Positions 58,819-63,285 of a stretch of DNA of 64,000 nucleotides are shown here, one piece after another. Every line of letters begins with the position of its first letter. Within the stretch, counting starts at the first letter, position 1. The stretch spans positions 96,001-160,000 of the forward strand of contig JAHPZA010000003.1 of NCBI GenBank assembly GCA_019058445.1. The letters run 5' to 3'. The position numbers and the translations under genes are program-made. This DNA is from Promethearchaeota archaeon. GTDB taxonomy: Archaea > Asgardarchaeota > Lokiarchaeia > Sigyniarchaeales > SOKP01. The notes beneath the pieces are model-generated. The model saw nothing but the letters and a program-made list of their open reading frames with translations, was not told the origin of the DNA and did no database searches.

Positions 58819-59685
58819 TTAGAGATTTTCTATAGCAGTATTTCGTCTAACGCGATGATTCTTCATCCCAATCTCTTCAGAGCTTACTCCCATAGCAAGA
58901 GCGATTAATTCGGTTAAATAAAGTACCGGAATATTATACTCTGCTTCAAATTTCTTTGAGAGGTCTCTTTGGGATGTATCAAATCGCTGGAAGCAGGCGG
59001 GACAGTTAACAACGATAACATTAGCACCTGCTTTTTTAATAGAGTCCATTTTCTGTTTTAGAATTGCATCGCCGTGTTCTGGATAAGGTCCAGCCACAGC
59101 ATTCCCGCAACAAAGTGCCAACTCATCATAATCAATTACGTTAGCACCAGTGGCAGCAACAATCTCTTTTAAATTTTTAGGACGCATTGGATCATCAGAT
59201 TCCATCCACTCGGCAGGACGCATGTAATGGCAACCAGGATGACAAGCAACTTTTAGATCACTCATTTGCTTCGTAATTCCCGCTTTAACTTTATCTAAAT
59301 TCTCCTTTAGAACGTCGACAAAGTGTACAACATCAATGGTACCCTTGAATTCTTTTCCAATTTTTGCTAATTCAGCATTAACTTTTTCTTTTTTCAAGGA
59401 ATCATGTTTTAATTGATGTTGAACTCCTCTTAAGGTGTTTGTGCAACCATTACATAGCGAAATAATAGGTTTACCCTCCGCTTCTGCTAAACATAAGTTT
59501 CGAGCACCTAGAGCAAGCCACGCCATATTATCAAAGCTTTTCACTCCAGTAGGATCTGGACAACAAGTAAAAGGAGCTTGTGATGTTTGGACTCCAATTT
59601 TGTCAAGAACCTTTCTGGAAGATGCCTCTATAAAAGGAATTCTATTACCAATCGTACAACCCTCAAACATTTTATATTCTGTCAT
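58819..59685 (-). CDS. hdrB: Heterodisulfide reductase subunit B
   Basis: Two CCG domains: GC, TCCP, CNGC, HPGCH, LCCG and CPAC. Confidence 0.93.
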   Translation of the reverse strand: MTEYKMFEGCTIGNRIPFIEASSRKVLDKIGVQTSQAPFTCCPDPTGVKSFDNMAWLALGARNLCLAEAEGKPIISLCNGCTNTLRGVQHQLKHDSLKKEKVNAELAKIGKEFKGTIDVVHFVDVLKENLDKVKAGITKQMSDLKVACHPGCHYMRPAEWMESDDPMRPKNLKEIVAATGANVIDYDELALCCGNAVAGPYPEHGDAILKQKMDSIKKAGANVIVVNCPACFQRFDTSQRDLSKKFEAEYNIPVLYLTELIALAMGVSSEEIGMKNHRVRRNTAIENL

Positions 59686-59700
59686 TTTCTTACCCTCCGT

Positions 59701-60234
59701 TTATAATTTTTTATCAACACCTATATTTTTTAATAAAGTTTGCACTTCATTAACATCTGGTGCAGCTACGGCTGGTAAGCCCAATTGTTCTCGTCTTCTC
59801 TCGATTGCGGGTTGAGATGGAATAGCTTTAGCACTTTCAAAAACTGCTTTGGCTTGAGCTACGACATTATCTGGTGCTAATCCTGCTCCAGTAGTAACAT
59901 TTTTAGCTAAAGTAATAATTTCAGTCACTTCAATTGCTTGTGGACAAACAGTATCACATGTATCACACACGGTACAACCCCAAGGTATAAGAGCTGATTT
60001 TGAGCCTGCTAAGGCCATGACAATATCTTTATAGCCTAGTAGTGTCCCTAATACAATCAATCTTGGATCAAACCAATTCGTAACCTCTCTATAAAAGGGA
60101 TTCGCTACATTAGCGACAGGACAATTGTCAGTGCATCGATTACATTGATAACAGTATTTTATCTTATCAGATCCAATATGTACATCCATTATAAGTTTCC
60201 TAAATTCAAAATCTATACCTAATGGTAATGTCAT
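59701..60234 (-). CDS. hdrC: Heterodisulfide reductase subunit C
   Basis: CYQCNRCTDNCP and WGCTVCDTCDTVCP 2x[4Fe-4S] motifs; adjacent to hdrB. Confidence 0.92.
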   Translation of the reverse strand: MTLPLGIDFEFRKLIMDVHIGSDKIKYCYQCNRCTDNCPVANVANPFYREVTNWFDPRLIVLGTLLGYKDIVMALAGSKSALIPWGCTVCDTCDTVCPQAIEVTEIITLAKNVTTGAGLAPDNVVAQAKAVFESAKAIPSQPAIERRREQLGLPAVAAPDVNEVQTLLKNIGVDKKL

Positions 60235-60304
60235 TTTTTTCACTTTTTTTTTGAGTTTTTTTCCAATTCATTTTTTTTCATATTTGTTGGTTTTAACCCA
60301 TGCA

Positions 60305-60356
60305 AGGGCAGTCATATCCAATCTATAATTTTTATTGGATATTTCATCCTAAACCA
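60305..60356 (-). promoter_or_regulatory. Eukaryote-like (Loki-type) SECIS element
   Basis: Minus strand: AUGA-A-AUAUCCAAU-AAAAAUUAUAG-AUUGGAUAU-GA-C, i.e. an AUGA/GA core, a 9-bp helix and an A-rich apical loop, immediately 3' of a Sec-containing ORF. Confidence 0.7.
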
Positions 60357-60493
60357 ACGTGTAATTCACGAGAGTAAATTTCTTTACCATCCTCATCAAC
60401 TACAGTGATGTGAGCGGCACACGATAGTCAGCAATCAAAACAGCGGACAATCATTTCTAAGACATTTACTACTCCTTCTGGTATATCACTCAT
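60344..60493 (-). CDS. vhuU: F420-non-reducing hydrogenase small Ni-binding subunit VhuU, selenoprotein (UGA22 = Sec); not in ORF track
   Basis: My translation: MSDIPEGVVNVLEMIVRCFDC-U-LSCAAHITVVDEDGKEIYSRELHVGLG. In-frame TGA at 60428-60430 sits at the Ni-ligand position; MvhA upstream lacks this C-terminal motif. Confidence 0.92.
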
Positions 60494-60530: not shown

Positions 60531-61835
60531 TTATTTTATCCATGGATCTGGTAATTTAAGTCCTTCTAACGCTTTATCTTCAAACACTTGTTTAGCTACA
60601 TGCATTAATGTCTTCTCAATTCCTGCAATGTTGTGATTGGTTGCAACCAAGAGGTTTGCTTTCTTACAAATGCCCTCAGCATCTGACCACAAATTATATA
60701 ACAAAAGCCCTCTTGGAGCCTCTACTACGCCTACACCTTCTCCTTCTCTTGGCTGAACGTCCAATGTTTTGCAGTCAGGATTTACAATATCCGGATCTTC
60801 TAATAATTTTGCCATCATTTCAATAGATTCGACTAATTCAATTAATCTGGCCCAGTGATAAGCAAACGTGAAATGAGGTGTATTACCAATTTTAGCTCTC
60901 ATTGCTTGTAGCGCTTCATCTGCTAAAGGTGTTGCCATTTTATCAGCACAATTCGTCATTGCCAAACAATTTGCTCTATAAATTCCTTCAGGATATCCAG
61001 CAGGTTTGTAGTACATGTGTGTTGCATAAGAATGTTTAGGAATATGTTCTCCCAATGCTTCTAAGTAATTTTGAGGAGCATAATCAAATTTTTCTCCATC
61101 TGGAGATACAATTCTAATATCTCCCTCATAAATATCATGAACGCCATTATTTGTCATCCCAACATAATAGGTAGGAACATTACCTACATTAGCAACGACA
61201 TCCCAATAATCTTCTACCACTTTAACTCCGATTTCTACAGTCTTCTTTGACCATTCTACTTGATTTTCAATCTCTTTTAAGAATTTATCTCTTACATCCT
61301 CATCTAATGCTTTCTTCATTCCACCAGGAATACATACAATAGGGTGAATTGCTTTACCTCCGACAGCAGCACACATTTTTTGACCGAAATCCATCATTTT
61401 CAATGCCATTGCGCCAACATCAGGCATTTTATTGATGACATGCACTACATTTCTTAAAGCAGGATCCGCAAAAGGTCCTAATAAGAAATCAGGTGCCGCT
61501 AGTGCAAAGAAATGTATTGCGTGGGAACTATACTGCTTGGCATTAATTAAGAGTTGTCTTAATTTTCTAGCGGGTTCAGGAATCTGAACACCCCAAGCAT
61601 CTTCAACTGCCTTAGTTGGTGCGATATGATGAGGAATTGGACAAATTCCGCAGATTCTAGGGGTAATTCTTGGAACATGCTCCATATAACGTCCTTCAAC
61701 GAATTTTTCAAAAAATCGTGTTGATTGGATATTAAATTGAACATCTTGTACTTTTCCATCATCTCCTAGAACTAACCTTAATCCACCATGCCCCTCTAAT
61801 CGAGTTACGGGTTCTACTTCTATTTCTTTCACCAT
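60531..61835 (-). CDS. mvhA: Group 3c [NiFe(Se)] hydrogenase large subunit (MvhA/VhuA), C-terminal Ni motif split off
   Basis: PVTRLEGHG, RICGICPIPH and VEAPRG..ANLLVATNHN; no DPCxxC at the C-terminus. Confidence 0.93.
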   Translation of the reverse strand: MVKEIEVEPVTRLEGHGGLRLVLGDDGKVQDVQFNIQSTRFFEKFVEGRYMEHVPRITPRICGICPIPHHIAPTKAVEDAWGVQIPEPARKLRQLLINAKQYSSHAIHFFALAAPDFLLGPFADPALRNVVHVINKMPDVGAMALKMMDFGQKMCAAVGGKAIHPIVCIPGGMKKALDEDVRDKFLKEIENQVEWSKKTVEIGVKVVEDYWDVVANVGNVPTYYVGMTNNGVHDIYEGDIRIVSPDGEKFDYAPQNYLEALGEHIPKHSYATHMYYKPAGYPEGIYRANCLAMTNCADKMATPLADEALQAMRAKIGNTPHFTFAYHWARLIELVESIEMMAKLLEDPDIVNPDCKTLDVQPREGEGVGVVEAPRGLLLYNLWSDAEGICKKANLLVATNHNIAGIEKTLMHVAKQVFEDKALEGLKLPDPWIK

Positions 61836-61839
61836 TTTT

Positions 61840-63147
61840 TTAGCCTCCTTTTCTTGATGCTAGTGTAAATTTCTCAAATGTACCAATAGGATCTTTAACT
61901 TGGGCAAGCAACTCCTCCTTTGATATGCTTACGTTAAAGCCTTTAAGTACCGTATCAGCAAACCTATTTGCTTGATTAACACCCCATTCTGTTTGACCAT
62001 AACAACCTGTACATGGAGCATTAACTCGAATGCATAAGCCACCGCAGCCAGCTTTAGTAACAGGACCTAAACAAATATAGCCTTGTTCAATTAAACAATC
62101 CTCCATATTTGGTAGCCCTTCATAATCTCTCTTAACTTTAGTCATTGTTGATTTACTACCAATAACCCTATCACAAGTATCACAAACCGTTGAGATATCG
62201 GTGAAATCCCGGTTATCTCTTAAATATGCTAATACATTAGAAGCAATAGCTTCAGTATCAGATGGTAAGTTTGCTAAAGGAGTTTCTGGTGCGCCCCTTT
62301 TCTTCACTTGTTTTAGAATATCTGCTGCTAAATCAAAACCAGCCATTAATGGCACGTTTAAAAATAGCGATAGAAATTCATAGGTAGTCTTCTTATCACC
62401 GGAACTTACTGAACCAAGATTCTTAGTCATATCGTTTAACTTTGACGCACGGGCAGAGACAGTTTTTGCAGGTCCCATACATCCAACACAAGGATTTCCA
62501 GCATCAGGACATTTCATCGTACAACCTACGCTGGTAATAGGACCAAAGCATAATTTACCCTCATCCAATAGACATCCAGATTGATTTAATGAACACTCAT
62601 TACAAAAAGCAAGATCATTCATAGGGAATGGTTTTTGACCAAGTAAAAAACCTATCGCACTGAAAATTTGTTCTGATTTTGGAGGGCATCCTGCTATATA
62701 GGCATCAACCTTAATGATTTCGTCAACATTGACGATTTTTGGTTCAAACCCAGGAACATGTTCTGTAGGCTCTCCACCTCCTGAAACCTTACTTTCTACT
62801 GTATTATATTTTCTGTCGATACATTCACTAATATCCCATTGATTTGCTAATCCGTGTACATTTCCATAGCAAGCACAAGATCCAAAGGCAATAATAATTT
62901 GGCATTTTTCACGCATAACTTTTACGCCTTCTTTATCTTGCTTAGTTCTAACACTTCCTTCAATGAAACCAACGACAATTTCTCCAGGCTCTCTAGCGAC
63001 CAATGAATCATATTTGAAATCAACTACAGCTGGCCAATAGACAATCTCTAAAGCTGGAAGTACCGGTAAGAGGCTTAAATGCAAATCTATTAAGCTCTGA
63101 TGGCACCCCCAACAATCAGAATTTTGCCAGAATGCTACTTTGACCAT
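61840..63147 (-). CDS. mvhG: Hydrogenase small subunit MvhG/VhuG with duplicated C-terminal Fe-S module
   Basis: DCWGC, EGSV, FGSCACYG and GCPP, then two CxxC...C...CxGP.T..GC...C.....PCxGCxG blocks. Confidence 0.92.
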   Translation of the reverse strand: MVKVAFWQNSDCWGCHQSLIDLHLSLLPVLPALEIVYWPAVVDFKYDSLVAREPGEIVVGFIEGSVRTKQDKEGVKVMREKCQIIIAFGSCACYGNVHGLANQWDISECIDRKYNTVESKVSGGGEPTEHVPGFEPKIVNVDEIIKVDAYIAGCPPKSEQIFSAIGFLLGQKPFPMNDLAFCNECSLNQSGCLLDEGKLCFGPITSVGCTMKCPDAGNPCVGCMGPAKTVSARASKLNDMTKNLGSVSSGDKKTTYEFLSLFLNVPLMAGFDLAADILKQVKKRGAPETPLANLPSDTEAIASNVLAYLRDNRDFTDISTVCDTCDRVIGSKSTMTKVKRDYEGLPNMEDCLIEQGYICLGPVTKAGCGGLCIRVNAPCTGCYGQTEWGVNQANRFADTVLKGFNVSISKEELLAQVKDPIGTFEKFTLASRKGG

Positions 63148-63285
63148 TTCATTCACTCTTTGATTTTTTGTTTTGTTTTTTTCTTTTTATTTTTATAAAT
63201 ACGTATTTATCTTAATAAAATAAGATGTTTTAATGTATTCACAAAATTATTAAAAACTTCTTCTTTTGAACTGATGATTGTGAAT

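Follow-up and report, generated by a model that had tools for sequence, protein, structure and literature searches.

Here, we report that a 49-codon reading frame with an in-frame UGA codon, found on the minus strand of 64,000 nucleotides of a Promethearchaeota archaeon genome (the window, i.e., the whole stretch analyzed; positions 96001-160000 of contig C3 in a 4.6-Mb assembly with about 31% G+C and 92.6% completeness), is with high probability vhuU, the gene for the small selenocysteine (Sec) subunit of a split group-3c (Mvh/Vhu-type) [NiFeSe] hydrogenase in a Lokiarchaeial Asgard archaeon; taken as a whole, this is the best explanation of our data. The frame is a separate short ORF that follows a large subunit gene without the C-terminal Ni motif, its product aligns in register with the missing part, its UGA is conserved, and the genome has the genes for Sec synthesis and insertion. 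Translation of positions 60344-60493 on the minus strand bore out the original prediction of a hidden 49-codon ORF with an in-frame TGA that encodes R-C-F-D-C-U-L-S-C-A-A-H. Gene annotation that omits this ORF makes the main cytosolic hydrogenase look broken, and the same applies to a paralogous cluster on the same contig. The features of the frame are as follows.

60347-60493, minus strand: vhuU coding sequence, 49 codons, based on translation, alignment to the MvhA C-terminus and to 9sfi_M, homologues with one TGA, and variation of the coding type before and after the TGA
60428-60430, minus strand: UGA codon 22 of vhuU, aligned with the first C-terminal Ni-ligand Cys/Sec
60410-60445, minus strand: L2 Ni-binding motif R17-C-F-D-C21-U22-L-S-C25-A-A-H28, based on translation and comparison with homologues
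60344-60346, minus strand: terminal TGA of vhuU, based on translation

The N-terminal 28 residues of the product read M-S-D-I-P-E-G-V-V-N-V-L-E-M-I-V-R-C-F-D-C-U-L-S-C-A-A-H and are followed by a 21-residue tail. Using phmmer against solved chains, the frame aligned to residues 425-452 of MvhA and to the 27-aa VhuU chain 9sfi_M; the matches were 7t2r_D, 5odc_F, 9sw2_F, and 9sfi_M, with (U/C)-x-x-C-x-x-H in register. The column of UGA-22 holds the Cys of D-P-C in the solved MvhA and FrhA chains and the X (Sec) of 9sfi_M. The 50-aa vhuU peptide had no match in Pfam.

The frame starts 37 nt downstream from the end of the large subunit gene vhuA on the same strand, and the gene order of the cluster is mvhG-like, vhuA, vhuU, hdrC-like, and hdrB-like, with hypC and hypD nearby; neither mvhD/vhuD nor hdrA is present in this cluster.

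61840-63156, minus strand: mvhG/vhuG-like small subunit, 438 aa (PF01058 at 83 bits)
60531-61835, minus strand: vhuA, [NiFe(Se)] large subunit, 434 aa, truncated before the L2 motif (PF00374; 9sfi_g at 417 bits; 5odc_F at 353 bits)
59701-60243, minus strand: hdrC-like ferredoxin subunit with 2x[4Fe-4S], encoded on the strand of vhuU and downstream of it (Fer4 family matches)
58819-59685, minus strand: hdrB-like subunit with two CCG domains (PF02754 at 96 bits in two stretches)

VhuA has the N-terminal RxCGxC motif (R-I-C-G-I-C), while inspection of its 434 residues for the C-terminal D-x-C-x-x-C-x-x-H revealed no such motif. The protein aligns to residues 4-418 of the 418-aa split VhuA 9sfi_g with 417 bits and to residues 3-416 of the 473-aa MvhA 5odc_F with 353 bits. 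The original proposal that an MvhA-type large subunit without its C-terminal Ni ligands is completed by a VhuU-type selenopeptide thus fits the alignments to 9sfi and 5odc. Judged from these alignments, VhuA and VhuU jointly represent one complete large subunit that covers full-length MvhA, in which VhuA would provide the first Ni-binding Cys pair and VhuU the second pair, Sec22 and Cys25, as well as His28. The hydrogenase probably hands its electrons to the adjacently encoded HdrC- and HdrB-like proteins. As side observations, Cys155 of VhuA (in Q-K-M-C-A-A-V-G-G) is present in 93 of 100 Asgard VhuA proteins and Cys390 (in E-G-I-C-K-K-A-N) in 78 of 100, and the solved methanogen enzymes have Val or Ile at these positions; moreover, the first motif continues as C-G-I-C-P in Asgard VhuA and with Q or D after the second Cys in methanogens. 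MvhG-like small subunits usually comprise about 300 aa, and the length of 438 aa is well above this value; the corresponding protein of the paralogous cluster has 462 aa. This second cluster, mvhG-vhuA-hdrC-hdrB-vhuU, is located on the plus strand of the same contig (C3:237886-242277; L301:1887-6277) and encodes a VhuA that is 83% identical to the one described here. In this cluster, vhuU comes last, following hdrB, instead of separating vhuA from hdrC; the motif R-C-F-D-C-U and its TGA are unchanged.

A homologue with one TGA at the matching column was identified in 36 of 41 related genomes and in all 17 of those of good quality, with E-values down to 1e-28, arguing that the vhuU frame has not arisen by chance. 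Moreover, the Sec codon is TGA in all 118 distinct homologous sequences. Over these 118 sequences, the mean entropies at codon positions 1, 2, and 3 are 0.63, 0.35, and 1.35 after the TGA compared with 0.51, 0.16, and 1.13 before it; this coding-like pattern argues that translation goes on beyond the TGA under purifying selection. A different explanation is that the TGA is a true stop codon or a sequencing error and the frame a decayed remnant, in which case the hydrogenase would be inactive or completed by another gene. As far as sequence comparison goes, the TGA invariance and the entropies across homologues exclude a sequencing error better than reads could, and the motif that is conserved after the TGA, together with the second copy in the same genome with the same TGA, argues against a remnant. 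We note that the vhuU match in one genome (G010:C57:8682-8856; L308) is split into two adjacent pieces in which a motif search found no intact frame, possibly due to a frameshift or an assembly error. We also note that typical Asgard vhuU sequences are present on contigs of MAGs labeled Deferrimicrobium, Nanopelagicaceae, and Bathyarchaeota (L056, L069, and L315); these contigs are probably mis-binned and of Asgard origin.

Immediately downstream, overlapping the end of vhuU, lies a candidate element for the recoding of the UGA.

60312-60347, minus strand: Loki-type SECIS, based on its sequence, its fit to the lokiSECIS description in PMC4989117, and covariation

The AUGA of the element is at 60347-60344 and its UGA is the stop codon of vhuU; one extra A, a 9-bp stem (60334-60342 paired with 60314-60322) enclosing an 11-nt A-rich loop AAAAAUUAUAG that ends in AG (60323-60333), and a GA (60312-60313) complete the element. 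In the published lokiSECIS, an AUGA precedes a 9-bp stem whose 11-nt loop opens with five A and closes with a G; the stem is followed by GA, or by AA in the case of VhuU (PMC4989117). The element described here has the same layout and differs by the extra A between the AUGA and the stem and by having GA instead of the AA of VhuU. Double compensatory changes were seen at all eight predicted pairs in an alignment of 71 downstream regions taken from other genomes, and this covariation is a further argument against a decayed remnant. The hairpin pattern matched in 94 of 123 distinct sequences, and at 130 of 141 loci the stop codon follows the Sec codon at a distance of 28 codons. The AUGA core includes the stop codon of vhuU itself, at a fixed position 28 codons 3' of the Sec codon. 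At gathering scores, Rfam gave no SECIS family in the window, and the Loki type is not matched by its library.

The original prediction also called for the Sec machinery, and all of its components (tRNA-Sec, EFSec, SepSecS, PSTK, and SelD) were found. The genome has genes for SepSecS (380 bits), for EFSec (242.3 bits, barely above the cut-off), and for SelD (189 bits; C10:463853-464689, minus strand; L003). The latter has one in-frame TGA, suggesting that SelD itself is a selenoprotein, in line with published Lokiarchaeota. The PSTK-like match is below the NCBIfam cut-off of 290.5 bits with 149 bits, yet it is full length. A scan of the whole genome with Rfam gave no match for tRNA-Sec, which is the observation that favors the remnant explanation. 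However, a low-stringency scan of the interval between the SepSecS and EFSec genes, followed by manual removal of two inserts, located a 158-nt tRNA-Sec gene (C6:1059760-1059917, minus strand; L020:7761-7918) that had been missed by both the Rfam scan and aragorn. Its acceptor stem is 9 bp long, the discriminator is a G, the CCA is encoded, and the anticodon loop reads CUUCAAA; inserts of 34 nt (D arm) and 31 nt (T loop) interrupt the gene. Minus the inserts, the remaining 93 nt have a minimum-free-energy cloverleaf at −48.4 kcal/mol with a UCA anticodon, a 9-bp acceptor, a 7-bp D stem with a 4-nt loop, a 6-bp anticodon stem, and a long variable arm. Of the two inserts, only the 31-nt one in the T loop has been reported, as an intron of Lokiarchaeota tRNA-Sec (PMC4989117). 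The two inserts carry the complementary 8-mers CCAACGAU and AUCGUUGG. An aragorn hit labeled tRNA-SeC(tca) at C1:27020-27126 (L019:221-326) was rejected; it is of the 7/5 type, its variable arm is long, its anticodon loop contains an intron, and it is most simply explained as tRNA-Ser(UGA). With intron search included, aragorn found only 23 tRNAs in the 4.6 Mb, suggesting that the majority of the tRNAs are probably intron-laden or unassembled. With the machinery complete, the explanation that the TGA is a stop or an error in a decayed frame has practically no chance of being correct. Rather, UGA-22 is very probably read as Sec; based on the genes and the element described, the recoding would be accomplished by EFSec and Sec-tRNA directed by the eukaryote-like SECIS hairpin.

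The C-terminal part of the product following the Ni-binding motif resembles the extensions of unsplit large subunits.

60347-60409, minus strand: 21-residue tail of VhuU after His28 (residues 29-49), aligned to the FrhA extension (3zfs_A 388-402)

Deposited FrhA and MvhA chains carry a C-terminal extension to which this tail is homologous; the tail also fixes the spacing of 28 codons between the Sec-UGA and the SECIS. C-terminal extensions of such large subunits are cleaved during maturation, and VhuU of M. voltae is reportedly cleaved at a defined position. The genome has a gene for a HycI-family endopeptidase (31.5 bits; cut-off 23). By analogy, it is reasonable to suggest that the 21-residue tail is cut off after His28, probably by the HycI-family protease and after metal insertion.

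In all solved group-3 homologues, the start of the L2 motif reads R-A-Y-D-P-C, and in the Methanococcus VhuU chain it reads R-A-Y-D-P-(Sec). The sequence described here departs from the canonical L2 signature D-P-C/U-x-x-C-x-x-H by a Cys at the position of the Pro. The original prediction considered this Cys and the one after the Arg as unusual; compared with the solved homologues, both are real departures, but R-C-(F/Y)-D-C-U-L-S-C-A-A-H is the standard sequence of vhuU throughout the order. We counted motifs by DNA-pattern scans in one genome per GTDB species. D-C-U-x-S-C-A-(A/T)-H was present in at least 119 stretches and, among the matches listed, almost all were from Asgard archaea, including Promethearchaeota, Hel-, Thor-, and Hodarchaeota, Atabeyarchaeum, and the cultured P. 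syntrophicum MK-D1. Among the matches listed, non-Asgard genomes account for three (two Poribacteria and one Testudinibacter); the two of these that were translated lack a hydrogenase context, for which reason we attribute them to chance. D-P-U was present in at least 120 stretches and, among the matches listed, almost all were from unsplit Desulfobacterota enzymes, plus one from an Asgard archaeon. D-C-C was present in 10 stretches, of which only two are real; both are Asgard and one of them is a fused large subunit. Of the 118 distinct sequences, 64 use TGC for Cys21 and 52 use TGT, and this mix argues that the residue is kept at the amino acid level. From these sequences, a Cys at the canonical Pro position appears as the ordinary state of Asgard VhuU.

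The close homologues also include variants of both cysteines. The position of Cys18 is occupied by Asn in Helarchaeota and by Ile in others. A Cys after the Arg is also found together with the canonical Pro in some Desulfobacterota (R-C-Y-D-P-U); we therefore rejected this residue as an Asgard novelty. Cys18 is not clade-wide, and it is less likely to matter than Cys21. Immediately before the Sec, one Loki genus has Pro (D-P-U); a Sigynarchaeum-type paralogue and one Loki genome have Phe (D-F-U), as R-I-Y-D-F-U and, in L312, R-C-F-D-F-U; and the Methanopyri-type split VhuU has Ile (D-I-U in R-S-Y-D-I-U). The loci of the Phe and Ile variants are the following.

L305, L306, L307, L310, L312, L314, and L315: Asgard
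L309, L311, L313, and L316: Methanopyri/Methanobacteriota MAGs

In Sigynarchaeum springense, an R-C-Y-D-C-C peptide (L292) occurs together with one that reads R-I-Y-D-F-U (L314). The question of whether positions 18 and 21 vary among homologues is thereby answered in the affirmative. The original description of four chalcogen residues in eight positions is correct for the sequence described here; however, it does not extend to the whole clade, as indicated by the Asn of Helarchaeota and the Ile that follows the Arg in one Asgard sequence.

What is the role of Cys21? Asgard VhuU has a Cys where nearly all [NiFe] hydrogenases have a Pro, right beside the catalytic Sec, and the original prediction proposed an additional selenenylsulfide or an altered Ni coordination. 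Our new data on the variants, i.e., that Phe, Ile, and Pro are also accepted before the Sec among close homologues and that the Cys after the Arg is not clade-wide, argue against building much on a chalcogen-rich motif. Phe, Ile, and Pro are incapable of thiol chemistry, and this weakens the proposals of a selenenylsulfide and of an altered Ni coordination and makes both less likely. The four residues that occur before the Sec (Pro, Cys, Phe, and Ile) share hydrophobicity and not chemistry, and this is the main argument against a selenenylsulfide being obligatory or a fifth Ni ligand being present. We slightly favor the idea that Cys21 is a replacement fixed by lineage, placed in a second-sphere pocket that is tolerant and largely hydrophobic. 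Mere packing is, however, not easily reconciled with the observation that Cys21 is kept over deep Asgard lineages despite the free turnover between TGC and TGT and persists in both D-C-C revertants. This conservation and persistence look like selection for Cys itself and, as read from the sequences, leave room for a thiol that would be useful yet dispensable.

Alternatively, Cys21 could be a redox partner of Sec22 that forms a selenenylsulfide when Sec is oxidized or before Ni is inserted, and that in this way shields Sec from over-oxidation in a form that can be re-reduced, as in thioredoxin reductase. In solved [NiFeSe] enzymes, oxidative modification takes place at the Sec, the Cys and the Sec of VhuU are vicinal, Cys21 is maintained with synonymous codon turnover in the Asgard stretches counted above, and D-C-C is far rarer than D-C-U, all of which speak for such a function. 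However, a Phe, Ile, or Pro at this position suffices in close homologues, and the D-C-U sequences are all from one clade and, therefore, their number does not count independent origins. Also, in mammalian thioredoxin reductase, the Gly-Cys-Sec-Gly sequence is part of a flexible C-terminal tail and cycles between the selenenylsulfide and the selenolthiol, while Sec22 would be a Ni ligand in a buried site. Finally, the literature searched yielded no mention of a Cys-Sec pair or bond, of a selenenylsulfide, or of a VhuU structure paper. By analogy with thioredoxin reductase, a partnership of Cys21 and Sec22 is conceivable, and we regard it as unlikely. In a stronger version that we consider rather improbable, the Asgard Cys before the Sec would be a built-in resolving thiol that traps oxidized Sec as a selenenylsulfide after exposure to O2 or another oxidant and allows rapid reductive reactivation. 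If true, this would be a mechanism of protection undescribed for any [NiFeSe] hydrogenase, and it could bear on the oxidant tolerance of H2-dependent Asgard archaea.

A further alternative is that the extra cysteines (Cys18-x-x-Cys21 beside Sec22-x-x-Cys25) serve in metal handling, by binding Ni transiently during its HypA/HypB-dependent insertion into the free 49-residue peptide or by providing a fifth ligand that alters the Ni coordination. The two overlapping C/U-x-x-C spacings fit with such a function, as do the fact that VhuU, as a separate peptide, must be assembled with VhuA and the presence in Asgard VhuA of Cys155 and Cys390, which are absent from the methanogen enzymes. By contrast, the replacement of Cys18 by Asn or Ile, its occurrence together with the canonical Pro in Desulfobacterota, and the assembly of the split Methanococcus VhuU with R-A-Y-D-P-U all speak against it. 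We also searched VhuA for a cysteine that co-varies with Cys18 or Cys21 of VhuU and found that Cys155 and Cys390 are Asgard-typical without being strictly coupled to the VhuU motif. Altogether, we consider a function of the extra cysteines in metal handling to be very unlikely and maintain our slight preference for Cys21 as a replacement fixed by lineage in a hydrophobic pocket.

We conclude that the vhuU gene described here is one more genome's copy of a published gene family, with a clade-typical motif that is undiscussed in the literature searched. That VhuU is a known selenoprotein of Lokiarchaeota, as the original prediction stated, is supported by its description as one of five selenoprotein families in Lokiarchaeota (Mariotti et al. 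2016, PMC4989117) and by its presence in 68% of the Sec-using Asgard genomes (Huang et al. 2024, PMC11227280). Reviews give the VhuU motif as UxxC, and the main texts searched, PMC4989117 and PMC11227280, likewise show UxxC alone, with no remark on the Cys that precedes the Sec.

Among known systems, thioredoxin reductase shares with VhuU the vicinal Cys-Sec pair, by sequence adjacency alone. The unsplit methanogen MvhA (5odc and 9sw2) and the Sec-containing MvhA-like proteins of Desulfobacterota have the same group-3 fold, the L2 pattern ...LN.(I/V)EM.(I/V)R.YD.(C/U).SCA.H, and the C-terminal extension; however, each is one polypeptide in which a Pro precedes the Cys or Sec, and only a few of the Desulfobacterota proteins have R-C-Y-D-P-U. 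Split VhuA/VhuU [NiFeSe] hydrogenases occur in Methanococcales, as originally stated, and the Methanococcus pair is the best solved match. This F420-non-reducing enzyme (PDB 9sfi/9t1s; chain g of 418 aa and chain M of 27 aa) has the same split site and the same Sec-x-x-Cys-x-x-His, while its peptide reads R-A-Y-D-P-U-Y-S-C-A-A-H instead of R-C-F-D-C-U-L-S-C-A-A-H, its SECIS is archaeal instead of eukaryote-like (PMC4989117), and the neighbors in the genome described here are hdrC and hdrB, with no vhuD or hdrA in the cluster. The vhuU genes of other Asgard archaea (Loki/Thor) are the closest: they share the ORF of ∼50 codons with a single Sec that adjoins VhuA and VhuG, the SECIS near the end of the coding sequence, and the tRNA-Sec with a 31-nt T-loop intron near EFSec, and Promethearchaeum syntrophicum MK-D1 (L127) has the same type of peptide. 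Nothing essential sets the gene described here apart from these, and the genome adds to the shared features a second insert in tRNA-Sec, i.e., the 34 nt in the D arm.
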